Virus record (IMG/VR): IMGVR_UViG_3300021519_000014
Span: 1 to 53,474 of that record
From: a virus
Taxonomy: Duplodnaviria > Caudoviricetes
Direction: 5' to 3' (one strand)
DNA length: 53,474 nucleotides
Positions 17,097 to 51,255 of this stretch are shown piece by piece. The translations under genes and the position numbers were made by a program. How positions within the stretch are numbered: the stretch's first letter is position 1; the number at the start of each line of letters is the position of its first letter. A model generated the notes under the pieces. That model searched no databases, had not been told where the DNA came from, and was given only the letters and a program-made list of their open reading frames with translations.

Positions 17097-18515
17097 TCAG
17101 TTACAATATTCGGTGATGATCACGATGCCCGACGACCCCGCGCCGCCCGCTACGTTGGCGATACTGTTGGACGTGTAGCCGCCGCCGCCGCCCGAGCCGT
17201 AGGCGCTTGCGGCGGCACCGTTGGCATCGCCGGTGCCAAAAAAGGCTGCGGGGGCCGCCCCGCCGCCGAAAAGTGACGATCCGCCCGCCGCGCCAAAAAC
17301 GGAGGTGGCCGCCGTGTTCGCGGCGTAGCCTGAATTGCCACTGGCCCCCGCAGCAGCGATGCCTCCGGTCGCGGTCCCGGCAATGCCACCAGCGCCCGCC
17401 GCGCCAACGGACACAGCTGCATCCGTGCCGCCGCCGCCCGTGCCGCCCTTGCCGATGCACAGCACGCCGACCGACGTATCGCCGCCGTTGCCGCCCGCAT
17501 TTGGACCGGCAGCACCAGCAGTACCGCCCGCGCCAATAGTGACAGTCTTGGACGCTCCGATGTCCGCCGCCGTCGCCAGCTTACGAGAGTAGCCGCCCGA
17601 TCCGCCGCCGCCGCCGACATTGACCTGCGACCCCGTGCCATTTGAGCCGCCACCCGCACCGCCGCCGCCGACGCATTCGATGATGCAGGTGACCATGCCG
17701 GCGTGCGGTGTGTATGTCCCAGAAGAGGTGAATACCTGCTGAAATACGGCGGTCGTAATTGCCGCCGTCGTCTGGGTTGTGGCGTTGGGGAACACGAAGC
17801 CGCCCGTAGTCGATGCGACGGTGCCCGCCACGGTCAGCATGTTGCTGCCGACGGTCGTCGTGCCGATGCCAACCTGCGTGCCCGACGGCGACAGGTACAG
17901 CGTGTTGCTGCCCACATTCAGCGTATTCGGGATCGCCATCGCGTTCGAGTTGACCGTGAGCGTGTCGCCGCCCGCGTCGCCAAGTACGGTATTGCCGCTG
18001 TTGGTCAGGCCCGCGACGGCAAGCGTCGTTCCGTCGAAGGTGAGGTTCGCGCTGCCCGCCAGCACGCCCGCGTTGTTGTACTGGACCTGCGTAGTCGAGC
18101 CGCCCGCGGCGGCCGTCGTGTCGTTGCGGACCATGCCGGACGCCGTGCCGTCGCAGGAGATCTGGACGTTGTCGCCGGCGTTGATCGTGACGTAGGTGCC
18201 GCCCGCGGCCGACTGCACGCGCACGGCGTAGCCGCCCGCCGTGCCGTTGCGGACGACCCACTGGCCCCCGATGCTGGAGGGGACCGAGTAGGTGACGATG
18301 CCGCCGGGGGTGCCCGAGACTACGAGCGAGAGGGGGACGCACTGCGCCGCCGACAGGACGACCGTCGTGCCGCCCAAGCCGGTGGAGTTCAGCAGCGTGC
18401 TGGCGCCGAGGGCGGAGTCGAGGAGTCCGAAGTTGGTGTTGAGGGGCCCGGTGCCCCACGTGTTGGCATTGGAATTGTAGGCGGGCTGGTCGAGCCCCTT
18501 GTTGGCTGTGGTCAT
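17097..18515 (-). CDS. Tail fibre-like virion protein with glycine-rich C-terminal domain
   Basis: G/T/A/S-rich; QVFTSSGTYTP...GGGGAGG...GSSGIVIITEY; GGSTTQVQYNNAG motif. Confidence 0.75.
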   Translation of the reverse strand: MTTANKGLDQPAYNSNANTWGTGPLNTNFGLLDSALGASTLLNSTGLGGTTVVLSAAQCVPLSLVVSGTPGGIVTYSVPSSIGGQWVVRNGTAGGYAVRVQSAAGGTYVTINAGDNVQISCDGTASGMVRNDTTAAAGGSTTQVQYNNAGVLAGSANLTFDGTTLAVAGLTNSGNTVLGDAGGDTLTVNSNAMAIPNTLNVGSNTLYLSPSGTQVGIGTTTVGSNMLTVAGTVASTTGGFVFPNATTQTTAAITTAVFQQVFTSSGTYTPHAGMVTCIIECVGGGGAGGGSNGTGSQVNVGGGGGSGGYSRKLATAADIGASKTVTIGAGGTAGAAGPNAGGNGGDTSVGVLCIGKGGTGGGGTDAAVSVGAAGAGGIAGTATGGIAAAGASGNSGYAANTAATSVFGAAGGSSLFGGGAAPAAFFGTGDANGAAASAYGSGGGGGYTSNSIANVAGGAGSSGIVIITEYCN

Positions 18516-21235
18516 TGGAGGGCCTCTTCAGCTATGGAGAGCGCCTTGGTGATGGCCTCATCAGGCTGCTCTAGGAGGGGTTCTGTCGTCGTGTTGTGGC
18601 CCTTCTTGGCCTTCTCCGCGGCGCGGATCAGCGACATCGCGATGCTGCCGTGGTTGATCCCCCCGATCCGCCCGCCCGCCTTGCGCCCCGGACGAGGAGC
18701 CCCCGTTGGCGTGGCGTACATCGGGATCGTCAGACCTTGCGCAGGCTGCGGCGGCGGAGCGTCAAGATCACGACCGCCAAGGTAACCGTACTTTGCGCCG
18801 GCTGTCGCCGCATCCTGCGCATATCGCGCCAGCCCCGGAATTGAAAACGGATTTCGAATGTTTTCTACTGAAGGCGCTTTGAGAAGCTCCCGCATAACTT
18901 TCGGGTCTTCGAGCGCGGCTTGCAGCAGCTTCGTGGCGGCCGCCTGTACGTCGCCGTACATCAACCGCGTTGTTAGTTGCCCCGGCGTTCCCCCGAGATA
19001 CCCACCGAGCCCTGCGAGACCGGCCAATTCCGCGCCCGCTGTCAACGCGGCGGGCAATCCGGTGGCTTTTGCAGCGCCAAAGGCAAGCGCGCCTTGCGCA
19101 AGACGGCCCATTGCGACACCGTGGACTAGCGTGAAGATGTCGCCCTGTTTCAGCAGGTCAGTCAATCGACGCTCGTCAAGCGCGCCCTGCGGGATACGCG
19201 ACCAGACTTCAGCCGACCGTTGAAGTTGCGTCAGCGATTGAGGACTATGCCCCGGCAAGGCTGCGCGCAAGTCAGCAGCGTTGTTCTGGATGAAGTCCGC
19301 GATGCGCGTAGGGTTCTCGCTGTTGAGTACGTCGCGAAACTCACCAACGAGCCGCTCGCTGCCGGCGCGCGCCGTGACGGCGCGCAAACGACTTTCAAGC
19401 CCCGGCACTTCAGCAACCAGCGACGCGAAGCTGGGATCCTTCATGTACCGCTGCAAGTCGGTGTCAGTTATAATCTTCTGGCCGTTGTTCGAGAGCTTCG
19501 AGACGGCCCAGTCCGATACCGACTCCTGCAGATTACGCTGCATGCTCGCGCGGTCCCCCGCCGGCAGCCTTTCGGCAACCGCCGGGGAGTCAAAGAACGA
19601 CGCCATCCGCCTGTAGTTGCCCGCGGCGTCTTTACCCTTCAGCAGCGTGTCGAGCGTCGTCTCAGACGGCAGCACGTTCTCCCCGGCGCCTGCAACGCCT
19701 TCGCCGTAGCGTTTACGAAGCTGGCCGAAAACTTTATCGCTGCTATCGAAAAGCCGTTCGTACTCTCGCGTCTTTTTGACGGCATCCGTCCATGAGTCAG
19801 AGAACTGCCCGTAAGTCACGCCTTCCGGCATGAACCTCTTCGATACATTCTCAACGTTCTCCAGCACCGGGTTGAAAGCCTCGATAAAAGCTCGTGTGCT
19901 GCGGCTGTCGCCGCGCCCTTCCCGCAAGTTCTCTTTCGCCGTCGACAGCGCGTTTTGGACGTAGCGAGCAGGCACCGTACCCTTCGCCATGTCGAAAGCT
20001 TCAATATATGCCCGCAGGTTCGGGTCGAGGGCTGCTACACCCGGGCCGATTTTCTCCGCCATTGCTTGAGAAGCTGCGCGCAGCGGTGGAGTGTTGATTT
20101 CGGCCAGCTCAAGCACGGGGTGTTTCCACGCGAGATCGGCGTCGCCCTTCATCCGGTCGTGGATGACGTCGAAGGGTCCGCGTGCCCTGACCGACGCTGC
20201 CGCCTGCGGATTATCTCCTACGACCCGCAGCGTCTCGTGCAGCGGGCTTGGCGCTGGCGCCGCCGCCGCGAGGCGCGCCGCCGCGCTCCCAATTTCCTGC
20301 CGTGCCTCAGTTGTGAGGATGGAACTTCGCTCTGGCGCGATTTCTTTTGTGAGCCCTGCGAGTCGCGGGTTCTGCGCCATGAGCTGTCGCGAGATGGGTT
20401 CGGCCCCCGGGGTGTAGAGGTCCGGGGAGAGCCGCGGCACGTCAGTGACGCCTGCCTCTTTGCGCAGGATGTCGGCCGCTGTGCCTTTGGCGATGGCTTC
20501 GCGTTCAGCGCGCCCGGCGCGCAGCGAACCCGCCCGCGCGCCTGCCAGCGCCCCGGCGATCTCCGCGCCGGGTGTGTTAGGCAGCAGTTCACCGGCTGCC
20601 CCCGCACCGACACCTGCCAGCAGGTTTGCGGGGCTCGCGGTTTCACGAATTGCGCCGCGTGTGAGGCCGCCTACACCACTGCGGATTGCGCCGGGTACCG
20701 CACCGAATGCGGGCGCGCCGCCGATGAATTCACCGGCAGTACGCGCCGCGCGACCGTATCCCGTGGCGGGTTCGTATTGGAGCCCCGGCACACCCTGCCG
20801 CGATGCCCAGTCGACTGCTCCCTTGCTGGTCGGCAGATCGACGCCCAACACCCGCGCATGCGTGCCGGCGCGTTCTTCAGGCGTCGCGCTTTCGGCTGCC
20901 GCGCGTTTGGCGGTTTCTAATTTTTGCGCGGCCTCACCCGGCGCGGTGAACCCAAGCACTTCGCCGGCTTTACGCGCGGCAAACGGGACGTATTGTTCAC
21001 CCAGCCGGTAAAGTTGCGCGATGTCACCCGGCAGCCCCGCCGTCCCTACAAAACCGCGGCCGACACCGGACGCCGTAGCCTTGGCGACATCTTCAACTAC
21101 TCCCGGCGTTTCGCCCGGAGAGGGCGTCTCAAAAGTTCCTTGGCCTGTGGCCGTTACTCTTGCGCCGGGGCGCACCGCGCGTTCAGGGGCCCGCGAGGGC
21201 GCGGGCGTCTCAAAAAGAACTTTCTCATCAGTCAT
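18512..21235 (-). CDS. Large internal virion/ejection protein (907 aa)
   Basis: Ala/Gly-rich helical protein downstream of the other ejection-type gene; function from position. Confidence 0.6.
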   Translation of the reverse strand: MTDEKVLFETPAPSRAPERAVRPGARVTATGQGTFETPSPGETPGVVEDVAKATASGVGRGFVGTAGLPGDIAQLYRLGEQYVPFAARKAGEVLGFTAPGEAAQKLETAKRAAAESATPEERAGTHARVLGVDLPTSKGAVDWASRQGVPGLQYEPATGYGRAARTAGEFIGGAPAFGAVPGAIRSGVGGLTRGAIRETASPANLLAGVGAGAAGELLPNTPGAEIAGALAGARAGSLRAGRAEREAIAKGTAADILRKEAGVTDVPRLSPDLYTPGAEPISRQLMAQNPRLAGLTKEIAPERSSILTTEARQEIGSAAARLAAAAPAPSPLHETLRVVGDNPQAAASVRARGPFDVIHDRMKGDADLAWKHPVLELAEINTPPLRAASQAMAEKIGPGVAALDPNLRAYIEAFDMAKGTVPARYVQNALSTAKENLREGRGDSRSTRAFIEAFNPVLENVENVSKRFMPEGVTYGQFSDSWTDAVKKTREYERLFDSSDKVFGQLRKRYGEGVAGAGENVLPSETTLDTLLKGKDAAGNYRRMASFFDSPAVAERLPAGDRASMQRNLQESVSDWAVSKLSNNGQKIITDTDLQRYMKDPSFASLVAEVPGLESRLRAVTARAGSERLVGEFRDVLNSENPTRIADFIQNNAADLRAALPGHSPQSLTQLQRSAEVWSRIPQGALDERRLTDLLKQGDIFTLVHGVAMGRLAQGALAFGAAKATGLPAALTAGAELAGLAGLGGYLGGTPGQLTTRLMYGDVQAAATKLLQAALEDPKVMRELLKAPSVENIRNPFSIPGLARYAQDAATAGAKYGYLGGRDLDAPPPQPAQGLTIPMYATPTGAPRPGRKAGGRIGGINHGSIAMSLIRAAEKAKKGHNTTTEPLLEQPDEAITKALSIAEEALQ

Positions 21236-24200
21236 TTACTCACCCCACTGCGCGCCGCCACCGGCGCTAGGGCCAAGGAAGCGTGCTTTCTGATACGTGT
21301 TGCCGTAGGGCACCATATACATCTGGCCAACCTTGAGTTTACGCGGGTCAGGGCCCGAAGATGTCATCGCAGTGTCGATGTCGCCAAGCACGGCGATATC
21401 CTTCTTCACCCGCGCAATCCGCTCGTTCAGGTTGTTACCGGGGAGCCGCGCCCACGCCTGCGCCGCGCCAGCGCGGTCAATGCTGGGGCCGTACTTGTTA
21501 GGAGACATCTGCTCATTAAGCCAATTGTCGCGCTCTTGAGCCCACTGCGCAGTCGCCACCAATTCAGATATGATAGCTTTATTGGCTTCTGGCAGAAGGT
21601 TCATGTCAGAGTTGGCGTTGCTCAGACCTCCATACCGGGTGTCTGACATCGCGCCAGCGTTTTTCAAATTGTCCATGATAAGTTTGTAGGCGTTCTTGCG
21701 CGCGATCTGGAAGGCGTCAGGGTCGGTGGCCGTGATGGTCTGGCCAGTGAAGCCCTGCACCAGCGCCGCCACGTTGTTGATGGCGCCACGCAGCGGGCCG
21801 GTCTGGGCTTCCTGCAGCGCCTTGCTCAACTCAGTCGCCGTTGAGAGCGAGTTCTCAAAATTCTGTTGGCGGTTTTCGTATGTGTTCTTCCACTGCGTGT
21901 TGTCGGCAGTGCGCTGCGTCTGCGCTTGCATGGAATTGAAACCGGGCAGCGTGATAAACCCGGTGCCGCCAATTACTGGTACCCGACCATTGCTACTGAT
22001 TTCAGCCTGAATTTCATCAGCTTCACGACGGCGTCTTGCAGACCCTTCGGCATCAAAGCGGGCCATTTGCCGCGCCTCTTCTCGCATAGTATCCGGGTTA
22101 CGCGCCGGGTCGATATTTTGCGCAACCCACTGTTGCTGCTCAGGCGTAATGCCGGCGGGGCGCGCCCAATCAGGCACGTCACCCGGCGGCGTAGCCGCTG
22201 AAGGTGCGGTAGCCCCGCCAGCCGCAGGCGCGCCGCCAGTCGCAGGCGCGCCGCCAGTCGCAGGCGCGCCGCCAGTCGCAGGCGCGCCGCCAGTCGCAGG
22301 CGCGCCGCTCCTGAGCAAATCCTGCATCTCGCCGGGTGACTTTGCATACCGGCTGAGCAATCTGCTAATGTATTGCCCAAGAATATCGTACTGCTTTTGC
22401 ACCGGGTTGATCAGGTCGGCTGAATCGCGATTGGCGATCATTTGGCCAAGTTTGGTACCGAGGTCCGTGCGAATTTTGAATAGTTCGCCCGCAGAGGATA
22501 TGTCAGCCCGCTGTTGATTTATGTCGAGGCCCTGCTGCTTATACGACATCATGGGATACATCTGCGCGGCTTCGCCAAGGCCCTGACCGATAGCGACGCC
22601 AAGGTACGGCGACGGCGACGCAAGCATCTTTCCGATGCCCCCCGCCAACGGCATCAGCCAGTTCTGGTTGTTTCCAATCCAGTCGCCGGCGCGGTCGAAG
22701 AAATTACGCTCCGCAAGGTTGGAGGCGTTGGGTGCCCTCAGAGCGTTCGATTCCACGGCAGGTGCAGGTGCGGGGGTATTGCCCCCCGGTGGCGTCTGCA
22801 CAGCTTGCGGCGGCGGAAGCGGGGGCGCGCTTGAGGGTGCCGTCCGCGCAGCGGGGGGCTGCGCAGCGGTGTTGTGGCCGACAAGATCGCTATCCCCGGT
22901 GGTGCGTTCAGCTCCCGCAGTGCTTTGCGGTGGTACAAGGCCCTGCGTAATTTCGGGCGGGTATACTGGCGGATTTGTCGTCGTCGTCGCCGGTTGCGCA
23001 GGCGGCGGCACAAGCCCCGCTGGGGTAGGCTCGGTTTGCGCGGCTGCCGCGCTACCCGTTGACGGGAACAGACTGCGCGTGAAATTGCCAATTGGATCGC
23101 GCGCAGGCGGCTTCATATTAGTAGGGTACGCAGGCGCGATTGAGTATGGGTCAACGCCTGTCGATTCGCGCGGCGGCGGTGGCACAAGCCCCACCGGGGG
23201 CTGCGGCTGCTCAGTCGCGCGCAACGTGTTTTCAAATCTGCGCTGACGCACGTTCTGGATCGTGGCGTCGCGCGCATAATCGCCTTCAGGGCCCCACATC
23301 GGCGGGGATGGTTCGCCAATCATTCGGTTTATGACGCGCGTCGTCTCCTCGTCGTCTGCCACGGCGCTTCCATCTGCGTAACCACGGCGCGGCACGAGGC
23401 CGCCCGAGGCAAAGCGGTCGGGCATCTCGAAACGGTCGGGCATCTCGAAATCGTCGCCCGTGTCGATGGGCTCAAGACCCGCGTGCATATCTTCAACATC
23501 GTGAAGCGGGGGCGCGAGGCCCGCGCTGCGCGGTGCCTCGGGGCGCATGTGCACCTCGGCCGGCGGCGCGCCGCCCATGATCTTGGCGACATAGTCGTTC
23601 GTCGACATGTTGACGTCGCGCCGTCCGAGGCGCCGCGCCTCGGACAACGGCACGCCGCTGTGCCACATCGAGGCGGCGTCGGCGAGGTTGCCGTGCTGGC
23701 CGAGATACTTGCCAAAATGGTGCTCGAAGACGCGCTCCTGCGCTTCCGGGCTCTTCAGAAACTCTTCCGGCGTCATGCGGCGCCCAAGGGCCTCTTGCGT
23801 CCACGACGGGATGTTTGCGCCCATGACCTGATACTTGCCGTGTGCGCGGTCGCCGCCGACTGACGGCCCCATGGCGTCGTATCGGCCGCCGCTCTCGATG
23901 CCCGCGATCCGGCGCTTGGCGTCGGCCATCATAGCCGGGTCAACGCGGCCGTCGGTGGCGTAGCCGACGCGGCCGCCGTCCTTCGCGAACGCAGAGCCTG
24001 CCATCTTGCCGGCCGCACCTCCTATCATGCCGCCCGCGGGACCACCCATTAGCGAGCCTCCGATAGTGCCTACGAGGCCCAGAAGGGCTCCCGCGGTTCC
24101 GTCTTTCTTTTGGCCGTCCTTATCGCCGCGCATGTCGAGCTTCGGCGCGTCGAGTTTATTCTGTTTTTGCGGGTCGTCGGCAAGGTCTTCAACTATTGAT

Positions 24201-26419
24201 TTGTCGTCGGTGCCCCCGGTGTACGGAAGCGCCGGGTTGCTGCCGACCAAGCCGCCGGGGTTGTATCCGATGCGTCCGCCGCGCGCGACAAACACAGAGC
24301 CGAGGCCCTCGCCAACACCCCCAAGGTCTTCTGCCGGAAGCTCGCCAAGCGACGCCGTTGTAATTTCAGAAGGCGCCGGTGCCACCTCGGCCGTTTCCAG
24401 CTTTGCTGCGCCCAGCCCCGGCGCCGGTGCCACCTCGGCCGTTCGCTGCGGCTCCGCTGCGCCCAGCCCCGGAGCAGCGCTCGTCCGCACGGGCGCCGGC
24501 TCCGGGGTGGCGGGAGCCGCGCTCGGCTGTGCGGAGGGAGGCAAATTTTCGGTCTTAACACTTCCCGGCGAAGTTGACGCCGTGTAGCCCGGTTGCGCCG
24601 GCTGCTGACTGGCGCGCTGCTCACGCCACCAGTCGCCAACCCCCTTGTATGCCTCCTCGCCGACCTTGTAGGCCTTCTCGCCGACCTTGTAGGCCTTCTC
24701 GCCCGTCTCGACGGCGCCGACGGCATCCTTGATGCCGCCCCCGACTACCTCGCCGGTTGACTTCGGCGGCGGCGGCGGCGGGGACAAGTTGCCTTTCAAT
24801 ATCGAAGGCGGGGTTATCGGTTTGGCGCTCCACCCCTGCTGCTGCCCCTTGGGCAGTGATTTACCCGCAATGCCGTAAGGCAGCGACCCTGCACCCGGGT
24901 TCGCAAGCATCTCAAGAATCTGCTGCGATCTTGCGTCGACACCCGGCGTCACCGCGCCCGATAATGCAAACGCGGGGCGAGGCGCGCCGAGGGCCGCCAT
25001 GCTCGGATGCACGGCGCCGCCCTCGGACGACGGCATCAGGCCGCCCCCGTAGGCGCGCTCGGCGTGCTTCGTCGCGGCGTCGTAGTCGACGGCCTTGATG
25101 CCCTCGGCCGTCTCGCTGACGGCCTCCGGGTGGTGCTTCTCGACGTCCTGCGCCGAGAGGCCAATCTGCGGCTGGTTCGATCCCTTGTACTTGAACTTGA
25201 TGATCTTCTGGCCGTCGTGGGTGCGGCCGATCTCGGTAATGTCTTCCTTGACGCGCTCGTCCGAGAAGAACGGCGTCGGCGAGCCGGTGACGCCCGACGT
25301 CGTGCTGCCGTAGAGCGGGCCGCCGCCGTAGGCGATGTTCGCGAGGAACTGGGCGATCTGGAACGGGTAGCCCTGCTGCTGCTGGTACTGGTTGTACAGC
25401 GCCGCGTTCTGCTGCTGCTGCGTCTGCTGCTCCAGCGTGCCGGCGCCAAGTAGCGCCTGCCCGCTCGCCAGCCCCGTCTGCGTGCCCTGCTGGCCTATTC
25501 CGGTCAGTCCTTGGGCCACATTCTGCCCGTAGCCGAGGAGGCCCTGCCCGAGGCCCTGCTGGGCCTGCGCGGCCGCCATCGGCTGCTGGAAGGCCTGCTG
25601 GCCGATCTGGAGGAGCTGGGGCGAGAGCTGCTGCATCGCCGCCCGGTTGGCCTGCCCCGCCTGAAGGCCCACACCCTGCTGCTGTTGCCCCGCCTGCAGG
25701 GCCTGCCCGTAGCCTTGCGAGAGAAGCCCGGCCTGCGTCTGCTGCGCGGCCAGACCCTGCTGGCGCGCCAGATTCGCGGCCCCAATCGAGCCTCTGTCGC
25801 CGCCGAAGGCGCCGCGCATCGCCTGCGAGCCCATGAGCTGGCTCTGCTGCTGTTGCTGCTGCTGGTACAGACCCTGCATCGTCGGTGCAACAACCGACTG
25901 CAGGTAGGGGTCCATGTACTGCCCGATGTTGAGCTGCCCCGGGTTCACCGCCTGCGCGCCGGCCAATCCCGCCATCGTAGCCGCGCCCGTGTAGGGCGCG
26001 CCCGCCGCCTGCGCCGTGTCGATATTCTGCCCCGCCTGCCCGTAGTAGGGGAGGGCGGCCTCGGCTGCGCCGGTCAGGGCCGTGGTCGCGGCCTGCTGAT
26101 AGGGCTGGTAGCCCTGCCCCGCGTTGGCGATCTGGGCAGTGCCGGCCTGCTGGGTGGCCGTCAGCGGCGCGACGAACTGGCCCGTGTACGGCTGGAACGG
26201 CTGCTGCGCGGCCGTCTCTGCGCGGGCGTTGACCGCGTCGTAGCGCGCCCGGACTTCGGGAGGGATTGTCGTCGTCTGCTGCTGGTAGGTCGTGCCGCCG
26301 GCACCACCCTTACCGCCGCCGAACGCAAGATGCCGGCGCGCAATCGGGGGCGCGCCGTCGAGGCCCATGAAGTCCTCGAAGGGGGCCCCGTCGTTCCAGA
26401 TCTTGCGTTCAGAGAACAT
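21236..26419 (-). CDS. Large ejection-type protein (1727 aa) with peptidase S74-like chaperone domain and lytic transglycosylase-like domain
   Basis: Q/G-rich N-terminus; SDERVKEDI...IGLSAQDVEK..PEAV...VDY; IAGIESGGRY...GKYQVM...FLKSPEAQE. Confidence 0.75.
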   Translation of the reverse strand: MFSERKIWNDGAPFEDFMGLDGAPPIARRHLAFGGGKGGAGGTTYQQQTTTIPPEVRARYDAVNARAETAAQQPFQPYTGQFVAPLTATQQAGTAQIANAGQGYQPYQQAATTALTGAAEAALPYYGQAGQNIDTAQAAGAPYTGAATMAGLAGAQAVNPGQLNIGQYMDPYLQSVVAPTMQGLYQQQQQQQSQLMGSQAMRGAFGGDRGSIGAANLARQQGLAAQQTQAGLLSQGYGQALQAGQQQQGVGLQAGQANRAAMQQLSPQLLQIGQQAFQQPMAAAQAQQGLGQGLLGYGQNVAQGLTGIGQQGTQTGLASGQALLGAGTLEQQTQQQQNAALYNQYQQQQGYPFQIAQFLANIAYGGGPLYGSTTSGVTGSPTPFFSDERVKEDITEIGRTHDGQKIIKFKYKGSNQPQIGLSAQDVEKHHPEAVSETAEGIKAVDYDAATKHAERAYGGGLMPSSEGGAVHPSMAALGAPRPAFALSGAVTPGVDARSQQILEMLANPGAGSLPYGIAGKSLPKGQQQGWSAKPITPPSILKGNLSPPPPPPKSTGEVVGGGIKDAVGAVETGEKAYKVGEKAYKVGEEAYKGVGDWWREQRASQQPAQPGYTASTSPGSVKTENLPPSAQPSAAPATPEPAPVRTSAAPGLGAAEPQRTAEVAPAPGLGAAKLETAEVAPAPSEITTASLGELPAEDLGGVGEGLGSVFVARGGRIGYNPGGLVGSNPALPYTGGTDDKSIVEDLADDPQKQNKLDAPKLDMRGDKDGQKKDGTAGALLGLVGTIGGSLMGGPAGGMIGGAAGKMAGSAFAKDGGRVGYATDGRVDPAMMADAKRRIAGIESGGRYDAMGPSVGGDRAHGKYQVMGANIPSWTQEALGRRMTPEEFLKSPEAQERVFEHHFGKYLGQHGNLADAASMWHSGVPLSEARRLGRRDVNMSTNDYVAKIMGGAPPAEVHMRPEAPRSAGLAPPLHDVEDMHAGLEPIDTGDDFEMPDRFEMPDRFASGGLVPRRGYADGSAVADDEETTRVINRMIGEPSPPMWGPEGDYARDATIQNVRQRRFENTLRATEQPQPPVGLVPPPPRESTGVDPYSIAPAYPTNMKPPARDPIGNFTRSLFPSTGSAAAAQTEPTPAGLVPPPAQPATTTTNPPVYPPEITQGLVPPQSTAGAERTTGDSDLVGHNTAAQPPAARTAPSSAPPLPPPQAVQTPPGGNTPAPAPAVESNALRAPNASNLAERNFFDRAGDWIGNNQNWLMPLAGGIGKMLASPSPYLGVAIGQGLGEAAQMYPMMSYKQQGLDINQQRADISSAGELFKIRTDLGTKLGQMIANRDSADLINPVQKQYDILGQYISRLLSRYAKSPGEMQDLLRSGAPATGGAPATGGAPATGGAPATGGAPAAGGATAPSAATPPGDVPDWARPAGITPEQQQWVAQNIDPARNPDTMREEARQMARFDAEGSARRRREADEIQAEISSNGRVPVIGGTGFITLPGFNSMQAQTQRTADNTQWKNTYENRQQNFENSLSTATELSKALQEAQTGPLRGAINNVAALVQGFTGQTITATDPDAFQIARKNAYKLIMDNLKNAGAMSDTRYGGLSNANSDMNLLPEANKAIISELVATAQWAQERDNWLNEQMSPNKYGPSIDRAGAAQAWARLPGNNLNERIARVKKDIAVLGDIDTAMTSSGPDPRKLKVGQMYMVPYGNTYQKARFLGPSAGGGAQWGE
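22223..22308. repeat. 18-bp tandem repeat (4 full + 1 partial) encoding GGAPAT linker
   Basis: cgcaggcgcgccgccagt repeated. Confidence 0.9.
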
Positions 26420-31452: not shown

Positions 31453-31455
31453 CGA

Positions 31456-40971: not shown

Positions 40972-41271
40972 TCAGCAGCTGCTCTGCTTGCTGCTGCGGC
41001 CCCGAGCGGGGGTACCGCTATGAGCCGAGGAGAGCGGGTTCATGTTCGAGCCCGCGCGTCCGCCGCTCTTGCGAGGCATGCGGCCGGCGTTGAGCTTGGA
41101 CATCTTGCCCTGCATCTTCACGGTCTTGCCGCCGCGCTTGCGCTCTTCGGCGGCGTCCGTGACATCGTCGGCGCCGGGACCGTTGTACTTCCCGTTCTTC
41201 CGACTGAGGTCTTCCTTGTAGGCGGCGACGCCGCCGCCGGCTTCACGATTTTTGCGATGACGAGCCTTCAT
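40972..41271 (-). CDS. Small basic GG-motif protein (99 aa)
   Basis: AAGGAGG RBS; REAGG, RKRGG and RKSGG motifs. Confidence 0.65.
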   Translation of the reverse strand: MKARHRKNREAGGGVAAYKEDLSRKNGKYNGPGADDVTDAAEERKRGGKTVKMQGKMSKLNAGRMPRKSGGRAGSNMNPLSSAHSGTPARGRSSKQSSC

Positions 41272-42329: not shown

Positions 42330-43244
42330 TCAGGTGGTCGGGAAGGATCCGAAGATCGAACGGAAGTTGTAGTACCCGAACGAGTACCTCTCGTAGCCCT
42401 TCACCAGCAGGTTGTCGGTGACGAAGTCGACCTGCATGTCCGTTTCGAACTTGATGCGCTCCATGTAGGAGAGCCCGTCGATGTTGGTCAGCAGGAACCA
42501 CGCGTAGGACGACGTCAGGAAGTCGTTGACCATGTAGCCTTCGGGCATACCGCCCGCCGTCGACATGATCGCGTTGACATCGTTGTCGGCCGTGCCGGGG
42601 CGCAGTTCCGTCTTGGTCAGGCGGATGGCGACCGGCTCAAGCTGCGGCGGCACGATGAGCTTCCGGGCGCGGGCGAAGACCTTGAGGCCCGCCTGATCCT
42701 TGAAGTTCGTCCGCACCGAGATCATCGCGTTCAGCAGCGACGCCTCGTTCAGGTCGACCTGAACCGCAGGCTTGTTGGCTACCGTGCCGCCGTCGATGGG
42801 GTGATCGGTGGCACAGAGTGCCTTGCCGTCGCCGCCGATGGAGGCATTGTAGGTCGTCGCCGTGTTCAGGATGTTCGCGCCGTAGATTTCCTTGGTCTGC
42901 TGAAAGCTTTCGATCAGGCCGAGGTTCGACGGGTGGAACTGCGTCTTGTACAGGTTGTCGTCGATGGCCTTGCGAGTGATCGCGTAGCCAAGAGCGATTT
43001 CCGTGTGCTCCTGATTGTAGACGAAGCGTTCGCCGGCGGCGTTGTCGAAGGCGGTCTGGCCGCCTTCGGTCTTCAGCTGGGCGAGCCCGAGGTACCGCAT
43101 TTCGGCGGTGCGTTCGAGAGCCATCTTCGAATCGTGCTTGGTGAAGATCTTGTCGTACTGAGACGGGATCATCTCGTACTTGCCCTCGACGCCACGCAGG
43201 CCGGGGAGGAGCAAGTCCTTGATGGCGGAAAGATTAACAGCCAT
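42330..43244 (-). CDS. Major capsid protein (Mu gpT-like family)
   Basis: 304 aa; LLPGL, ALGYAITRKAIDDNLY, KLIVPPQL, AWFLLT, KGYERYSFG; strong RBS and codon bias. Confidence 0.88.
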   Translation of the reverse strand: MAVNLSAIKDLLLPGLRGVEGKYEMIPSQYDKIFTKHDSKMALERTAEMRYLGLAQLKTEGGQTAFDNAAGERFVYNQEHTEIALGYAITRKAIDDNLYKTQFHPSNLGLIESFQQTKEIYGANILNTATTYNASIGGDGKALCATDHPIDGGTVANKPAVQVDLNEASLLNAMISVRTNFKDQAGLKVFARARKLIVPPQLEPVAIRLTKTELRPGTADNDVNAIMSTAGGMPEGYMVNDFLTSSYAWFLLTNIDGLSYMERIKFETDMQVDFVTDNLLVKGYERYSFGYYNFRSIFGSFPTT

Positions 43245-45460: not shown

Positions 45461-45467
45461 TGTGTCC

Positions 45468-45860: not shown

Positions 45861-45861
45861 G

Positions 45862-46137: not shown

Positions 46138-47697
46138 TTATTTCTTATGCTTCTGGATCGCGATCTTCTCGATGCGGCCCATGCCGCCCAGAGCGCCTGC
46201 GTCCATGTCCTTGTAGGAGCGCGCGCGGCCGCCTGACAGGCGCCCCACACGCTTGCCGTGCTCGATCTCGACCTTCTCCAGACGTCCCATGCCGCCCAGA
46301 GCGCCCGCGTCCATGTCCTTGTAGGAGCGGTAGGCGCGGCCGCCGCTCTTGCGCGGCATCGGGGGCATTCCCGGCGGGCCACCCATCGGCGGCATGCCCG
46401 GGGGCGGGCCGGGCGGCGGCATCGGCATCGGGGGCATGCCCGCGCCCATGCCCGGGGGAGCAATCGGCGGGACAGGCATCGGCGACGGCGTCGGCATCTT
46501 GGGCATCATCGCCTGCTGATCGTCGGGCTTGCCGGCGTTGATCGAGATGACGATGTTGGTCTTGCCCTTGGTGCGGCCGCCGCTCTTGCGCGCTTTGCGG
46601 TACGAATTAGCCTTTTCATCCCACTCTTCAAGATTCTCACGTTTTGGGTCATCCGTGCTGCGCGCGGCCTCCCGCATGGCATCATCGTGATCCTTTGCGC
46701 CGATCATGATATGGCCGTACCGGCCCTTCAGGCGGTAAGACTTCAGCCCTTTGTCGGCTAGCGGGCGGTCCTGCATACTACCGCCGTCGGCCTTCGGCAT
46801 GCGGCCGCCGGTGGGGCGTGTGCCGCCGTAGTAGGTGCCGCCGCCCTTGGCCTTCATGGGCATCATCGTGCCGCCCGGCGGGCTCGTCTTGTCGCCCTGA
46901 CCTTCGGGAGGGCCCTTACCCGTCTGGAGCTTCTGCCAGTCTTCGTACTTGGTCTCGGGCGCCGCGCGCTCGCGGGGTCCTAACATCGTGGACGCTCGCT
47001 GCCCCGGCCCCATCAATGCCTGTTTTGTGAGGCTGTCTACGTCCATGCCGCCGCCGTCCTGCTTCTTGGTGCGGCCGCCCTTCGTGTAGCGGCCTGCGAT
47101 GCGGCGCCCCGACGGGGGCAGCGGCGTGTTGGACACGTCGCGCGGCATCGGCTGCTTCTCAGCGTCCGCGGCCATTTTCTCAAAATTGGCTATCTGGTAA
47201 GGCGTCATCTTGGCGTTGGGGTCCATCTTGCCGCCGTCGGCCTTCTTGGTGCGGCCGCCCTTCTTCAGCTTGATGTCCTCGTGCTTGCCGCCGTGCATGT
47301 GTTCGTCATGCTGGCGGAATGCCTTCTTGACCAGCTTCTTGTCCTGCTCGACGTCGCCGCCGCTCTTGTAGCCGCCGACATGGGCGTCGCCGCCCTCGCG
47401 TGCGAGGTTCGCCTTCTTCACGTTGCGATTGATCAGGTCCGTCACCAGCGAGCGGCCGCCGCCCTTACGCTGCTTGCGGTCGGCGCGCATGGCGGTGGGG
47501 CTGCCCTCAATGACCTTGCCGCCCTTCCTGTAGGCGCGGCGCGTCAGGGGGCGCATGCCCGTCTTCATGTCGGTGTTCATCATCTCGGGCGGCGACCAGC
47601 TCGACGCGTCGACCTTGGTCTTCGGATCGCCCTTGCCGCCCATGCGGGAGGCCTTGGCCTTCATGGCCGCGCGTGCGGCCTTCGACATCTCACTCAT
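46138..47697 (-). CDS. Basic low-complexity late protein with >10 xxxGG motifs (519 aa)
   Basis: K/G/M/P-rich; GGAG RBS; duplicated C-terminal SYKDMDAGALGGMGR. Confidence 0.75.
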   Translation of the reverse strand: MSEMSKAARAAMKAKASRMGGKGDPKTKVDASSWSPPEMMNTDMKTGMRPLTRRAYRKGGKVIEGSPTAMRADRKQRKGGGRSLVTDLINRNVKKANLAREGGDAHVGGYKSGGDVEQDKKLVKKAFRQHDEHMHGGKHEDIKLKKGGRTKKADGGKMDPNAKMTPYQIANFEKMAADAEKQPMPRDVSNTPLPPSGRRIAGRYTKGGRTKKQDGGGMDVDSLTKQALMGPGQRASTMLGPRERAAPETKYEDWQKLQTGKGPPEGQGDKTSPPGGTMMPMKAKGGGTYYGGTRPTGGRMPKADGGSMQDRPLADKGLKSYRLKGRYGHIMIGAKDHDDAMREAARSTDDPKRENLEEWDEKANSYRKARKSGGRTKGKTNIVISINAGKPDDQQAMMPKMPTPSPMPVPPIAPPGMGAGMPPMPMPPPGPPPGMPPMGGPPGMPPMPRKSGGRAYRSYKDMDAGALGGMGRLEKVEIEHGKRVGRLSGGRARSYKDMDAGALGGMGRIEKIAIQKHKK

Positions 47698-50600
47698 TTA
47701 TTTTCTCCGTGTTATCGCGAGCGCACGCTCGACAATGTTGGTTGCGCGCCCACCGCGTTTAAAGTCGCCCGAGCCGGTGCCGTCGCCGCCCAGTATCTCG
47801 GTCGGTGAGGGTCCGTAGTTCGTCTGGTAGTACGGCATTGCATCGGCGGCGGGTTGTACCGGCGCGACGGCGGGTGCGGGCGCGGCGACCTTCGGGGTCG
47901 TCGGGAACATCTCTTCGTAGGTCTTGCCGTTCAACGCATTATACATCAGGGCACGGCTGGCATCGTTGGGGGCATCCCCTCTCGCCTGCGCATCCATGCG
48001 CTGGTAGGCCCCGTAGGGGGCCCGCTGCGGCATGGCCTGCTGCTGCTGCGGGGCCTGCGCTGCGACCTGCCGGTTGAGGTCGCTGAAGGCCCCCCGCAGG
48101 TTCTGCTGGAGCTGTTCGACGCCGCCGCCGGGTGTGTAGCCGGCGCGGCGATTAGCTACTTCGCGTGTGGGTGCACGGCCGGATCGCGTCGAAACATAGG
48201 GGGCAAATCCTCCTCTTGCTCGGCCGACAGGCGCGAGGGCGGCTTGCCCGCGTACAAGAGGTTCAGAAAGTGCTCCCTGTCCAGCGGGACTTTGGTTGCC
48301 CTCATCAGGTCCAGAAGACCCTCCCACGAACCATGTCGGGGCTGGGATGCCGTGGGGGGCTGATAGATTGACGATGCGCTGCTGGGCTTCATGTTGGTCT
48401 ATCTTTCCGTTGCGGTATTGCTTCCAGACATCGGTCACACGCGCATTATGCGCGGGGGTCTTGGCGGTGTCGGGAAAGAGCCCTCGCACCGCTTCCCACG
48501 TAATCGACTGCATTTCGCGTGGCAGGATACCACGCGACGCCGCCGCCTTGCGATATGCATCTGCGTACAGTGGGTACGTGCCTTGGATGCCGGTCATCGC
48601 CGTCCCGCGCGCGGCGGGCAACCCGACGCCGGGGTGGTTGGCGAAGTTGTGGGCCACTTCTAGAGAGTTGCCCGATAACGGGCGCAACAACCCCGCCGCT
48701 ACAGCGTGCGTGTCGATGGTGACGTCGCCGTGAGGGGACTGCGGCGCCAGAATGTTGTTGTAGAAGTTACGGACTTTATGCTTCTCGCCCATCAGCTGAG
48801 AGAGCGCCTCCGGGTTTCCCGCGTTCTCAATAGCTTGAATAGCTTTTCCGATTTCCGTGAGCGACCCCCACCCAACCTTTGCCTTCGCGCCTTTGGCGGT
48901 GGCCACGAAATCGCCGTCTCCGCCTTCCGGTGTAATGATGCGATGCGCCGGGTCGCTGTGCGCTTCGTCGTGCATCCTGATCCATAGCGCCTTGGCCTGC
49001 GCCTTGGCTGCTGGCGACAGGTCAAGGCCGTCAAGATCCGCCAATGAGCGGCCATTCATAAGCTGCCGCACGCCTTCATACGCCGGTTTGTTGAGCGACG
49101 GGCGCGACGTGAACGTCTTGGCCATCTTGTCGTCGAAGGCGAAACCCTTGTAAAAATTTTCGTTGCCGCGCATGGCGTTAAGGACGCGCTCGGCCAGCGA
49201 GACGTTCTGGTACCAATCTTTCTGCGGTGACAGCGCGGCCAGTGCGCCCGCGATGCTATGATCCGGCAAGCCGTACTTCTGCGACCAACGGTCGGTGATT
49301 GCCCGCGCGCCGTCGTACCAGAGCTTGCTGCGCTGCCGGATGTGCTCGGGCACCGCGTCGTGCAGGGCCAACAAGTTGTCCGTCACGTGGTTTATAAAAG
49401 CATCGGCTACTTTGTCGTGGTTTTTATACCCCGCAACTTTGGCGGTCGTGTTTGGATACGCGCGCACCAAATCAACATTTGAACGGAATACATCAGGTGT
49501 TTGTTTCATAGATGCCACATCAACAATGTGGCGTTCACCTGCGGTGGGGGTGTGTTTCTTGCTAGTGATCAACCGCGTAGGAATCCACGCTGGGTGGTCG
49601 CCTGTGGCTTCGCCACCGTCAGCGTAACGCTGGTGCACCCCTACATCTCCGCCGCGCTTGAATGAGTTGAAGCCGTTGGCCTTGATGCTGTCGCGCATCT
49701 GCGGCGTGACGTCGAGGCTGTGAAGTCGAGATACGTCAGTCGTGGATGGGCGGTAGTTGGACGGCGTCACCAAGTCGTCGCGCTCTTCATCGGTCAACTC
49801 TTCAAAGGGGCGCGAGGACTGCATCTCGTGCGCGTGCAGGTTGACCTTCGCCTGCGGGTCGTGCTGCTGCGCGAGGGCCTGCAGGCGCTTCGGGAGGATG
49901 TTGTCGTAGTAGCCGCGCATGCCCTCGCCGCCGACCTTCAAGCCTTCGCCCTCAAGCTCGTGGTAGAACTCGCCGCCCAGCTTGCCGCGACCCTCGTAGC
50001 GTTGCATCCCCTGCTTCAGGATCCGGTCGGCGGCCTCCTTGCCGATGTGCTTCGACAGGTCCTCTGGCTTCACGTTCTCATGTTCGACGCCTTGGTTGTC
50101 GTGCGTCGTCGCGTGAAGGTAGCCGAGGTCGGGATAATACTGGATGTTCTTGACCTGACTGCTCAGGTCGTACCGCTTGTTCTGCTCGTCGCCCGGCGTG
50201 ACGACGATCTTGTCGTAGCCGCCGTGCGCGGCCTCGTGCAGGACGCGCTTCAGCGCGAGGTCGGTCCACTTCTGGGTGTTGTCGACGTAAGGACCAGAAG
50301 GAACGCCCTTGTCGCCCTTCGCCGCCATAACATCAATCTGGCGCTGCAATGCTTCGTGCTCTTCTGCAGTGCTAGTAGCATCGCGGCGGTGCAGCAAATC
50401 TTGAAATTTTGCCTCGTTGTCAAATCCGCGTTCACGGCCCTGCTGGCCCCAGTCGCTCTGGGCTTCCTCAAGGTGGAGGATCTTCTCGCCGTTCGGGCCT
50501 TTACGGTCGGACATGCGGACGTGCGCGAGGACGTTAGGCTCGTCCCAGTGGCCGGATTTGTAGTTTTGCGTGCCGTGTCTGGCTTTGAGTTGCGTCAACT

Positions 50601-51255
50601 CTTCGCCAGCCTGCATAGCTTCCCGCTCGCGTAGATCGTGGTCTGCACGAGACGTTTGCGAATTGCCGCCGAGTTGATCAAGTAGTGAAGCATCGAACGC
50701 GGCAAGTGCTTGCTTGTGGCGTGCGCGCGCGGCGTCTACCGCGGGATGGTCTTTTGAAGGCGCGTGCAGCAGCACCTCGCGGTAGTTCTCGCCGCCGGGT
50801 AGCGCGGTCTTCTCTTCGCCGTATCGACGCAGCGCCGATTGCTCGTCGTCCCCAGTGTAGACCGTCTCCTGCAGCGGGGCGGCATTGTCCTCAAGGTGCT
50901 TGATCACCTCCTCTCGGGGAAGGGCCTTCGAGCCCAGCGTGTCGAACTTGGAGTGCTTCAGCTCATCGGGCTTGATGCCCGGCATCGCCGCGTACTGCTG
51001 CGGCGTCGCCTTGGCCTGTCCCTTGGACTTGATGATCTTGGCCGCGCCGCTGTAGAGCTTGAAGGGCGGGACCTTGCCGCCTTCGGCATAGCCCGACGGG
51101 CCGATGTACTTGCCGCCGCCGGGGCCGCTGTAGCCGCCGCCGCCGGGCGACGGGTCCATGCCCCCGCCGGGCCCCGGGTAGATGTTGGCCACTCGCCGCA
51201 GCAGGGCGCGCTGGTCGCGGGCGATCATCGTCGCGCGTCGAATGTTATCAGCCAT
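47698..51255 (-). CDS. Large multidomain (polyvalent-type) protein, 1185 aa, including a DUF7178-like domain
   Basis: Domain 1: NYREVLL...HWDEPNVLAHVR...LEEAQSDWGQ. Domain 2: LWYDGAR...AALSPQKDW...KVRNFYNNI...VTIDTHA...MQSITWE. Confidence 0.7.
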   Translation of the reverse strand: MADNIRRATMIARDQRALLRRVANIYPGPGGGMDPSPGGGGYSGPGGGKYIGPSGYAEGGKVPPFKLYSGAAKIIKSKGQAKATPQQYAAMPGIKPDELKHSKFDTLGSKALPREEVIKHLEDNAAPLQETVYTGDDEQSALRRYGEEKTALPGGENYREVLLHAPSKDHPAVDAARARHKQALAAFDASLLDQLGGNSQTSRADHDLREREAMQAGEELTQLKARHGTQNYKSGHWDEPNVLAHVRMSDRKGPNGEKILHLEEAQSDWGQQGRERGFDNEAKFQDLLHRRDATSTAEEHEALQRQIDVMAAKGDKGVPSGPYVDNTQKWTDLALKRVLHEAAHGGYDKIVVTPGDEQNKRYDLSSQVKNIQYYPDLGYLHATTHDNQGVEHENVKPEDLSKHIGKEAADRILKQGMQRYEGRGKLGGEFYHELEGEGLKVGGEGMRGYYDNILPKRLQALAQQHDPQAKVNLHAHEMQSSRPFEELTDEERDDLVTPSNYRPSTTDVSRLHSLDVTPQMRDSIKANGFNSFKRGGDVGVHQRYADGGEATGDHPAWIPTRLITSKKHTPTAGERHIVDVASMKQTPDVFRSNVDLVRAYPNTTAKVAGYKNHDKVADAFINHVTDNLLALHDAVPEHIRQRSKLWYDGARAITDRWSQKYGLPDHSIAGALAALSPQKDWYQNVSLAERVLNAMRGNENFYKGFAFDDKMAKTFTSRPSLNKPAYEGVRQLMNGRSLADLDGLDLSPAAKAQAKALWIRMHDEAHSDPAHRIITPEGGDGDFVATAKGAKAKVGWGSLTEIGKAIQAIENAGNPEALSQLMGEKHKVRNFYNNILAPQSPHGDVTIDTHAVAAGLLRPLSGNSLEVAHNFANHPGVGLPAARGTAMTGIQGTYPLYADAYRKAAASRGILPREMQSITWEAVRGLFPDTAKTPAHNARVTDVWKQYRNGKIDQHEAQQRIVNLSAPHGIPAPTWFVGGSSGPDEGNQSPAGQGALSEPLVRGQAALAPVGRARGGFAPYVSTRSGRAPTREVANRRAGYTPGGGVEQLQQNLRGAFSDLNRQVAAQAPQQQQAMPQRAPYGAYQRMDAQARGDAPNDASRALMYNALNGKTYEEMFPTTPKVAAPAPAVAPVQPAADAMPYYQTNYGPSPTEILGGDGTGSGDFKRGGRATNIVERALAITRRK
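48156..48392 (-). CDS. Nested alternative-frame small ORF (78 aa), candidate immunity/partner protein
   Basis: LLDLMRATKVPLDREHFLNLLYAGKPPSRLSAEQEEDLPPMFR looks folded while the host frame here is linker-like; GGAAAG upstream. Confidence 0.5.
   Translation of the reverse strand: MKPSSASSIYQPPTASQPRHGSWEGLLDLMRATKVPLDREHFLNLLYAGKPPSRLSAEQEEDLPPMFRRDPAVHPHAK

Follow-up and report, generated by a model that had tools for sequence, protein, structure and literature searches.

We analysed a 53,474-base stretch that makes up the whole of the IMG/VR virus record IMGVR_UViG_3300021519_000014 (the window), and found that a short motif around a glycine pair recurs in six of its late proteins. The real consensus is R-x-x-[RKYF]-[AK]-x-G-G-x-[VI]. 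The motif exceeds what composition predicts, recurs in the same gene positions of related loci, brackets interchangeable modules, and is often paired with an amphipathic helix at the end of a protein. We consider it possible, with a probability of about 45%, that motif and helix together form a modular docking or encapsidation tag. An earlier reading of this DNA from its letters alone, here called the original prediction, had pointed to a basic/aromatic-x-x-GG motif in these proteins. Its central observation is confirmed: the motif is a shared signature, conserved at the protein level and limited to late proteins that resemble internal or ejected cargo.

The six carrier proteins are the following (aa, amino acids).
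47698..51255, minus strand: 1185-aa post-portal protein of the polyvalent type (Pfam DUF7178, E = 1.5e-25)
46138..47697, minus strand: 519-aa protein, rich in Gly, Lys and Arg and mostly of low complexity, with 12 motifs of the originally predicted type
40972..41271, minus strand: 99-aa basic protein, two genes past the capsid gene
27578..28198, minus strand: 206-aa conserved protein
21236..26419, minus strand: 1727-aa putative ejection protein (PHROG 'virion structural protein'/'DNA ejection protein', residues 41-452)
18512..21235, minus strand: 907-aa putative ejection protein

The motif exceeds chance in the pooled carrier proteins

The original prediction named 27 pentapeptides, and all 27 were located in their named genes: five in the 1185-aa, 11 in the 519-aa, three in the 99-aa, two in the 206-aa, five in the 1727-aa, and one in the 907-aa protein. 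The proposed basic or aromatic residue at position -3 from the GG is present in most of these pentapeptides but not in VARGG, AKDGG, and LKKGG, and the definition is loose. Counted with overlaps, GG occurs at 22 (1185-aa), 25 (519-aa), 4 (99-aa), 3 (206-aa), 36 (1727-aa), and 7 (907-aa) positions. We counted the pattern [KRYF]xxGG and compared each protein with 2000 shuffles of its whole sequence. The 519-aa protein has 12 matches where 2.6 are expected, a count reached by none of the shuffles. The 1185-aa protein has 6 (2.2 expected, p=0.019) and the 99-aa protein 3 (0.5 expected, p=0.010); the 206-aa protein, with 2 against 0.5 expected, is marginal (p=0.087). When residues were shuffled only inside blocks of 20 or 40 residues, so that local composition was kept, the counts of the 519-aa (p=0.0005) and 99-aa (p of about 0.012) proteins alone remained significant.

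The pooled counts separated the carriers from the other proteins. The six carriers have 28 matches to [KRYF]xxGG against 11.0 expected, and none of 1000 shuffles was as high. The other 24 late proteins have 11 (9.9 expected) and the 22 early and other proteins 5 (5.3 expected). For the longer pattern [KRYF]xxGGx[VI], the counts are 10 against 0.9 in the six carriers, 1 against 1.1 in the other late proteins, and 0 against 0.6 in the early ones. Enrichment beyond composition is confined to the six carriers.

The original prediction had seen no motif in capsid proteins. Enrichment is indeed lacking there, but single matches do occur, one KTEGG in the major capsid protein and two in the variable 343-aa protein, all at chance level. 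The second G of the capsid KTEGG is not conserved in relatives. Neither the portal nor the 274-aa protein that we take to be the scaffold is enriched. The glycine pair of the window scaffold (TRGGNVV) was considered as a carrier site and rejected; relatives read TRPNVV at this place, so the GG is not conserved. In the other multidomain late proteins of the window, namely the tail fibre proteins and a nozzle-like protein, no motif beyond chance was found.

The consensus takes two forms

Two matrices were trained on sequences from other loci. The basic matrix comes from a two-component model of the GG sites of those loci, with the window and its near-identical relatives left out, and reads R..[RK][KA]xGG[RK][VAT]. 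The polyvalent matrix comes from post-portal proteins and a model seeded solely on V or I two residues past the GG. It reads G-[YKRF]-A-[DKE]-G-G-x-[VI]-[DE] and accounts for about 43% of 274 GG sites. Since only V/I was seeded, the residue at position -3 emerged without being imposed.

At 6 bits or more, the basic matrix matched only five of 52 window proteins, the 907-aa (1), 206-aa (1), 99-aa (3), 519-aa (8), and 1185-aa (1) proteins. The polyvalent matrix, at 5 bits or more, matched the 907-aa (1), 1727-aa (2), 519-aa (3), and 1185-aa (1) proteins and one early open reading frame (ORF). This 85-aa ORF (1134-1391, plus strand) has a single match, SYASGGEP at 6.5 bits, which is the sole match outside the late cargo set. 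A subset of sites has the form GGx[VIL]G[VILYFM], with 23 occurrences against 5.4 expected in 120 proteins and three in the window.

The motif recurs in the same gene positions of related loci

Given that the six proteins had been picked by eye for the motif, independent support must come from relatives. A search of IMG/VR with the capsid protein returned 596 relatives from 599 matched stretches, and the best 80 loci were kept. Twenty-five related loci with upstream DNA were examined, with motif counts for 24 of them. In at least 24 of the 25 loci, enrichment recurs at three fixed gene positions. First, the motif is found in the variable large protein or proteins directly past the portal gene. 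In addition, the Gly/Lys/Arg-rich protein before the GroES-like gene carries 7-19 copies where 1.1-3.3 are expected. Finally, there is usually a basic protein of 90-147 aa past the capsid gene with 3-5 copies (0.4-0.7 expected). The portal, GroES-like, scaffold, 193-aa-like, and capsid proteins of the relatives have 0-1 motifs (24 of 25 loci). The GenBank relative MW202675, a metagenome assembly and the nearest record with a name, has the same pattern, and its homologue of the 519-aa protein, labelled 'yenB' by the depositor's annotation only, carries 10 copies against 1.5 expected.

We also examined homologues of the 1185-aa protein. Among 7999 candidates scored, 1095 had E<=1e-5. The best 120 of these 1095 contain 499 matches to [KRYF]xxGG against 238.5 expected, and 253 matches to [KRYF]xxGGx[VI] against 21.7. 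The counts in relatives include related sequences and are not independent events. Homologues of the 519-aa protein number in the thousands in public metagenomes.

The motif is a property neither of polyvalent proteins nor of the capsid family in general. Two polyvalent proteins of phage F116, which has a different head module, have 3 matches each against 2.7 and 2.6 expected. Pelagibacter phage HTVC023P, whose capsid protein is 42% identical, has only isolated copies. Alcaligenes phage QDWS535 (capsid protein 39% identical), a cultured relative that shares the head module, lacks the motif even in its large putative ejection proteins; there the portal gene is directly followed by the GroES-like gene, with no cargo genes between them. 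The lack of enrichment in these three phages indicates that the motif system travels with the cargo genes of this lineage.

The motif brackets interchangeable modules and is often paired with a terminal helix

The 120 homologues of the 1185-aa protein are mosaics of 651-2074 aa, in which DUF7178 is combined with ART-PolyVal, InPase, GP88, SLT, acetyltransferase, or methyltransferase domains; PBECR5 also occurs among the relatives of this protein. A Pfam match was obtained for 11 of 26 post-portal proteins of the related loci. The 5073 internal breakpoints of homology among the 120 homologues fall within 5 residues of a motif in 12.9% of cases, compared with 2.4% for random positions. Conversely, a breakpoint lies no more than 15 residues away from 214 of the 232 internal motif sites, compared with 42% of random positions. 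Together with cassettes inserted exactly between motif copies and the varied domain repertoire, these results support the predicted bracketing of interchangeable modules. Sites may be N-proximal, internal, or C-terminal, with 1 to 19 per protein. They are single or form doublets at junctions, and long tandem arrays of the RTX or YD/Rhs type were not seen.

A second element, an amphipathic terminal helix of the type x[KR]RALMIAK, often accompanies the motif. Most post-portal proteins end in the motif plus this basic helix (for example, FKKGGAVRRALMIAKGSKKK; the window tail reads FKRGGRATNIVERALAITRRK), and many homologues start MAKDV[KR]RALMIAK..GG. A strict helix signature was found in the last 28 residues of 46/120 homologues and in the first 28 of 20/118, compared with 0.7% of random internal windows. 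A GG lies within 25 residues upstream of 38 of the 46 C-terminal helices. Of the 17 window proteins tested, just two carry the signature, the 1185-aa and the 907-aa protein, in each case at the C-terminal end. Long fused proteins retain whole tails internally, and the single fused gene of other loci is represented in MW202675 by three separate genes. Both observations fit an end-to-end fusion of cargo genes that were tagged separately.

Sites in the individual carriers

The sites are listed below by carrier, all on the minus strand.
51076..51090, 1185-aa protein: YAEGG, residues 56-60, at the end of the N-terminal disordered leader (10.5 bits)
49612..49662, 1185-aa protein: doublet FKRGGDVGVHQRYADGG, residues 532-548, in the inter-module linker
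48124..48222, 1185-aa protein: RARGG (1012-1016) and YTPGG (1040-1044), in a disordered stretch past module 2
47701..47769, 1185-aa protein: C-terminal tail GDFKRGGRATNIVERALAITRRK, motif plus terminal amphipathic helix
47518-47532, 47455-47469, 47356-47370, 47230-47244, 47074-47088, 47050-47064, 519-aa protein: motifs 1-6
46840-46854, 46804-46818, 46780-46794, 46576-46590, 46339-46353, 46228-46242, 519-aa protein: motifs 7-12
41233-41247, 41128-41142, 41059-41073, 99-aa protein: three motifs
28064-28078, 206-aa protein: RATGG
27758-27772, 206-aa protein: KAEGG
25010-25063, 1727-aa protein: further site, residues 453-470
24236-24295, 1727-aa protein: doublet, residues 709-728
23954-23992, 1727-aa protein: doublet, residues 810-822
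23366-23419, 1727-aa protein: doublet, residues 1001-1018
18671-18685, 907-aa protein: RKAGG, its only strong motif (12.1 and 9.2 bits on two cross-trained matrices)
18515..18697, 907-aa protein: 61-residue C-terminal tail PRPGRKAGGRIG ... AITKALSIAEEALQ, common to otherwise unrelated proteins

An AlphaFold2 model of the 1185-aa protein (55-row alignment; mean predicted local distance difference test score, pLDDT, 76.7) has two confident modules at about residues 60-530 and 555-977, the second with DUF7178. The pLDDT falls below 50 at 19-57, 533-551, 978-1049, and 1062-1172, and an end helix spans 1173-1184. All six motif copies (56-60, 532-536, 544-548, 1012-1016, 1040-1044, and 1165-1169) lie in these low-confidence segments or at their edges. 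The BLAST blocks shared with relatives (61-556, 555-1016, and 1037-1185) have the same ends as the model segments. For this protein, the confidence profile and the homology breakpoints thus agree with the claim that the motifs sit at domain boundaries. The first module has no Pfam match. A Foldseek search of the whole model against the PDB gave nothing at E<=0.001, the best match being an 8-oxoguanine glycosylase at E=0.07.

In an alignment of 30 sequences of the 519-aa family, invariant GG columns alternate with variable cassettes. Residues 301-360 (46600-46790, minus strand) have a counterpart in Pseudomonas phage ZRG1, a separate protein of 62 aa annotated as 'KH domain-containing', with 60% identity, so the 519-aa protein also holds small exchangeable modules. 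Residues from about 395 to 519 (46141-46515, minus strand) are largely invariant across the 30 homologues. They contain a stretch rich in Met and Pro, PKMPTPSPMPVPP...MPPMP, after which a unit of 36 residues, RKSGGRAYRSYKDMDAGALGGMGRLEK..., is duplicated in tandem; the duplication appears in the DNA as a 69-nucleotide repeat, 88% identical, at 46153-46221 and 46261-46329.

The three sites of the 99-aa protein align in 53 distinct homologues, and extra motif copies are inserted past the second site. In the AlphaFold2 model of the 206-aa protein, each motif lies in a low-confidence stretch directly before one of two repeated strand-helix units. The residues are nearly invariant in 66 distinct homologues: A42 in 62, G44 in 66, and G45 in 61 at the first site, and K/R143 in 66, A144 in 65, and G146/G147 in 66 at the second. 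The codons at these sites are mixed (Ala is encoded by GCT 27, GCC 16, GCG 10, and GCA 9 times), and the loci range from 47 to 66% in guanine plus cytosine (G+C). Near-invariant residues with mixed synonymous codons indicate that selection goes beyond a DNA joint and acts on the protein. At the first motif, certain relatives of the 206-aa protein contain an inserted module that is bordered by a duplicated motif. This module is small and conserved, GGLYANIHAKRERI.HGS.E.MRKPGS.GAPT, and was seen in loci L156, L162, and L146.

The doublets of the 1727-aa protein, F-x-A-R-G-G-R-I-G-Y-x-x-G-G and R-F-A-x-G-G-L-V-x-R-x-G-Y-x-x-G-G, are kept in homologues down to 39-41% identity. The transglycosylase-like domain that the motifs were said to bracket found no support from Pfam or from PDB sequences. 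The protein also has glutamine runs, a match at 386-434 to Peptidase_S74, a self-cleaving intramolecular chaperone, and a five-fold tandem repeat of GGAPAT at about 1374-1403. In the 907-aa family, homology starts exactly at RKAGGRIG and runs through the tail of 56-61 residues, with at least five different upstream bodies in 13 loci. The tail is highly conserved in 12 of the 13 loci (79-98% by tblastn where the tail was reported) and 40% identical in the thirteenth.

What the motif may do

If motif and helix form a docking or encapsidation tag, the tag would mark whole proteins, and single modules of fused polyvalent proteins, for uptake into the procapsid, and the tagged proteins would later leave with the DNA. 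It would dock onto one common partner, which may be the very conserved inner surface of the capsid, the portal or core, or the multivalent 519-aa protein acting as a hub. With each module bringing its own tag, cargo genes could be fused, split, and swapped without losing encapsidation. The capsid protein is a candidate receptor, being by far the most conserved of the head proteins. That the carriers lie within the virion and that the tag has a binding partner are inferences, as is the nature of this partner.

We favour docking for four reasons. First, a short conserved peptide on the disordered leaders and tails of unrelated bodies looks like a targeting signal. Second, it comes with a terminal helix usable at either end, and this second element points to docking rather than to cleavage. 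Third, it is confined to proteins that are internal or ejected by position or by PHROG label. Finally, fusion, fission, and cassette exchange all preserve it. The original prediction had proposed a signal for head loading; what is shown of this proposal is a conserved, cargo-limited, module-bracketing motif, with loading into the head as its putative role.

Several observations weigh against a docking tag. The raw counts of two carriers are at chance, namely 4 against 3.6 expected (p=0.50) in the 1727-aa protein and 1 against 1.7 (p=0.82) in the 907-aa protein, and under the local-composition null the 1185-aa protein is only marginal (p=0.06-0.11). The tag is repeated 8-15 times in one protein, which is odd for a simple address label. 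A basic flavour (RKSGGR) coexists with an acidic one (YADGGEV), and their functions may differ. The terminal helix is missing in 65 of the 120 polyvalent homologues and in the 519-aa family. The virion-internal status of the polyvalent, 519-aa, and 99-aa proteins comes from gene position, from the PHROG labels of the 1727-aa protein, and from a prediction in PMC5512222. No cultured phage with the 519-aa family was found; tblastn returned only MW202675 and a 60-residue match in phage ZRG1. When the capsid protein, with an alignment of 100 rows, was co-folded with the last 66 residues of the 1185-aa protein, with an alignment of 14 rows, the score was 0.00 against a mark of 0.32; made without controls, this co-fold has no bearing either way.

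A more elaborate form of this idea is a cargo-loading code, drawn by analogy. Docking motif and terminal helix would act as a universal signal that can be read from both ends of a module and recruits all carriers into the highly conserved capsid, and the 519-aa protein would be the glue between shell and cargo, acting like encapsulin targeting peptides or carboxysome CsoS2. We hold this form to be possible but doubtful.

The motif could instead be a flexible linker and recombination joint, the hinge that this lineage prefers between modules and copies along with them, without a role in binding or processing. Repeated coding sequence would then favour cassette exchange. The sites do lie in disordered linkers, breakpoints cluster at them, and cassettes come and go exactly between duplicated copies. 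Motif copies are also alike in their DNA: the 99-aa gene shares 26 nucleotides with the 519-aa gene at 92% identity, and 43 nucleotides are repeated within the 519-aa gene at 86%. However, a hinge needs glycine and not a fixed R at -6, [RKYF] at -3, A/K at -2, and V/I at +2, and these residues are kept despite varied synonymous codons in loci of 47-66% G+C. Single copies also occur near the termini of proteins that are not mosaics, beside the conserved terminal helix, and other multidomain late proteins (tail fibre, nozzle-like) do without the motif. We regard a mere linker as unlikely; even then, the motif would be a useful marker of module boundaries.

Maturation cleavage appears improbable. 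A protease of phage or host would cut at or beside the GG, freeing the modules of polyvalent proteins and chopping the 519-aa and 99-aa proteins into small basic peptides, and the terminal helices would be removable targeting pro-pieces, as in the logic of T4. The position between modules fits a polyprotein site, and Iyer et al. proposed processing of polyvalent proteins as possible (PMC5512222). Lambda gpH, which has two motif copies in its C-terminal part, is cut to gpH* in a glycine-rich region, with the site and the activity given as unknown in PMC12617516; the estimated cut there (about 690-730) is upstream of the motifs at 733-737 and 778-782. Some proteins end 3-10 residues past the GG, and doublets 8-9 residues apart are common, neither of which suits a cleavage site. 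As originally predicted, searches of the 58 window ORFs with Pfam and PHROGs recognised no prohead protease, nor did they find any other peptidase family, including C5 or C39 cysteine proteases. The conserved 193-aa protein, which has no Pfam or PDB match, has no invariant Ser or Cys, and its 25-row profile gave only weak AT-hook matches in Pfam. Adenain-type sites and double-glycine leaders have a hydrophobic residue at -4 from the cut and GG at -2/-1. In the motif, position -4 is G, A, or K, and the conserved residues are [RKYF] at -3, A/K at -2, and V/I two past the GG. With no protease found and a consensus that does not fit, the di-glycine processing proposed originally has no support.

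Nucleic-acid binding is more improbable still. In this reading, the basic R-K-x-G-G-R of the 519-aa and 99-aa proteins is a repeat that condenses or tethers DNA, comparable to an AT-hook or RGG-box, and it would hold internal proteins on the packaged genome. Lys and Arg make up 20% of the 519-aa and 23% of the 99-aa protein, R/K stands on both sides of the GG in a basic matrix, and the tails end in Lys/Arg clusters. Yet the commonest polyvalent form is acidic, Y-A-[DE]-G-G-E-V-[DE], the conserved positions hold aromatic residues, Ala, and Val rather than charge, and no Pfam DNA-binding family was matched.

Chance and composition, that is, GG dipeptides of glycine-rich late proteins selected by eye with a loose rule, fit the two carrier counts at expectation and the chance-level matches of other late proteins, but this explanation is already contradicted by the data and has next to no probability left: the pooled count was not reached by any shuffle, two proteins survive local shuffling, and the motif recurs in at least 24 loci and in 120 + 120 database homologues with sites conserved column by column.

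If the encapsidation tag is real, it would provide a sequence rule to predict injected effectors of uncultured phages, account for the modular evolution of polyvalent proteins, and offer a small portable tag to load foreign proteins into capsids. Were there a full cargo-loading code, a very abundant environmental lineage would be able to shuffle anti-host effector domains freely and still have them packaged.

Gene layout and head module

The window is a nearly complete genome of an SU10-like podovirus from an uncultured, large environmental lineage. The record is rated 94% complete and has about 65% G+C. We chose the gene set from ORFs by length and third-position G+C. The left third encodes replication and early genes on the plus strand (family A DNA polymerase, primase/VapE-like helicase, PD-(D/E)XK nuclease, and Dam-like methylase). 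The virion genes lie on the minus strand from 17.1 kb to the record end. No terminase gene was recognised in the record; it is probably in the missing 6% of the genome. Two head genes are located as follows.
51248..53474, minus strand: portal gene (SU10_portal / phrog_1216), which runs off the record end; 0 motifs
42330..43244, minus strand: major capsid protein (phrog_371 'major head protein', weakly Mu-like gpT); not a motif carrier

Read from the record end on the minus strand, the late genes are in this order.
SU10-type portal, 1185-aa (DUF7178), 519-aa Gly/Lys/Arg-rich, GroES-like
274-aa, 193-aa, 209-aa (directly before the capsid gene), major capsid protein, variable 343-aa
99-aa basic, DUF6321 protein, SU10-adaptor-like proteins, tail fibre proteins, endolysin
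776-aa virion protein, 206-aa, GNAT and HNH/endonuclease VII genes
1727-aa, 907-aa, glycine-rich fibre protein

The 274-aa protein (44654-45478) is taken as the scaffold from its gene position and a C-terminal segment conserved in 48 loci. It has no PDB match, and sequence searches of the PDB were likewise negative for the 209-aa, 193-aa, and capsid proteins. An NCBIfam search with 12 proteins gave nothing relevant, and a search of the ESM Atlas with the conserved head proteins gave unnamed viral clusters only. Across the best 80 loci, identity is 90-98% for the capsid protein, compared with 62-69% for the portal, 53-87% for the scaffold, and 57-94% for the GroES-like protein. By these identities, the capsid protein is unusually frozen amid hypervariable neighbours.

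A gene at 45468-45962 (minus strand), with the cargo genes on one side and the scaffold gene on the other, encodes a homologue of GroES (Cpn10) that has a basic N-terminal extension of 62 residues. This homologue is kept in the head module of 55 related loci and of the cultured relatives HTVC023P and QDWS535. We considered whether the motif mimics the mobile loop of GroES (TKSGIYL in the phage GroES-like protein, KTKGGVIL in HTVC023P) and set this aside because the motif lacks the run of three hydrophobic residues after the GG. The 91-aa DUF6321 protein (40650-40925, minus strand) aligns with the C-termini of PHROG families that are far longer (in one case, positions 850-927 out of 928 in the profile) and may be another portable terminal module. 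At 26419-27578 (minus strand), between the 206-aa and 1727-aa genes, are two further genes: one resembles HNH/endonuclease VII and has a Lar-like match in its N-terminal part, and the other resembles GNAT acetyltransferases.

Comparison with known systems

In the papers searched on polyvalent proteins, capsid targeting sequences, and DUF7178/ART-PolyVal, no description of the motif was found, and among the matches listed for papers containing the pentapeptides none was on phages. Polyvalent proteins were described by Iyer, Burroughs, Anand, de Souza, and Aravind in 2017 and are predicted to be packaged in the capsid and injected (PMC5512222). Like them, the 1185-aa family consists of large mosaic proteins with exchangeable effector domains among the head genes beside the portal; in the window and in related loci, the 1185-aa gene is directly past the portal gene. 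The ART-PolyVal, PBECR5, and InPase domains of its relatives are Pfam families named for polyvalent proteins or treated in PMC5512222. The 1185-aa protein of the window has two folded modules, and DUF7178 is its only recognised domain. In the main text of PMC5512222, neither 'glycine' nor 'linker' occurs and no junction motif is described. The motif is not general to the polyvalent class, as the un-enriched F116 proteins show, and here it is present in the non-polyvalent 99-, 206-, and 907-aa proteins as well.

The tape measure protein gpH of lambda offers a lead only. In it, FHFATGGF and RGYATGGYVG flank a GEFVF...G.GN element, and the 206-aa protein has the same order, KAEGG and then GGEYVIHPEDVVRLGKGS (BLAST of the element, E=0.083, weak). 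In the virion, the C-terminal part of gpH is disordered and was not resolved; upon infection, gpH leaves the particle (PMC12617516). However, gpH is a siphovirus tail protein and not head cargo, and it has two copies only.

Encapsulin targeting peptides (GGDLGIRK, GSLxIGSLK, LTVGSLRR) combine Gly with hydrophobic residues on a flexible linker and bind the inner face of the shell (PMC10960027), which has the HK97 fold (PMC8229669). A minority of the sites here, GGx[VIL]G[VILYFM], resembles the Thermotoga peptide GGDLGIRK. Encapsulin peptides are C-terminal and single, whereas most sites here are not C-terminal and their consensus differs. The encapsulation peptides of bacterial microcompartments are amphipathic terminal helices on a linker, at either end of diverse cargo enzymes. 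CsoS2 of the carboxysome is disordered, has many short repeats, and stitches cargo to the shell. The 519-aa protein would be the analogue of CsoS2, in logic only, as shells and sequences are unrelated.

For the capsid targeting sequences of T4 internal proteins and P1 DarB, short peptides suffice to send cargo, even foreign cargo, into the phage head, and the P1 authors found no consensus shared by the Dar protein N-termini (PMC9024508). With the encapsulin peptides, these short loading tags are precedents for the docking reading. The T4 and P1 signals are single and N-terminal; here, one consensus is on at least six proteins, at either end and internally, in up to 15 or more copies. The T4 capsid targeting signal is removed by the prohead protease, unlike the situation in the window, where no such protease was seen. 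Rules for head entry and injection are known for very few cases, namely T4 internal proteins and P1 DarB. For P1, no consensus common to the cargo proteins was found (PMC9024508). In the lineage analysed here, one consensus conserved at the protein level is found on every putative internal protein, and also at the seams where effector domains are exchanged.

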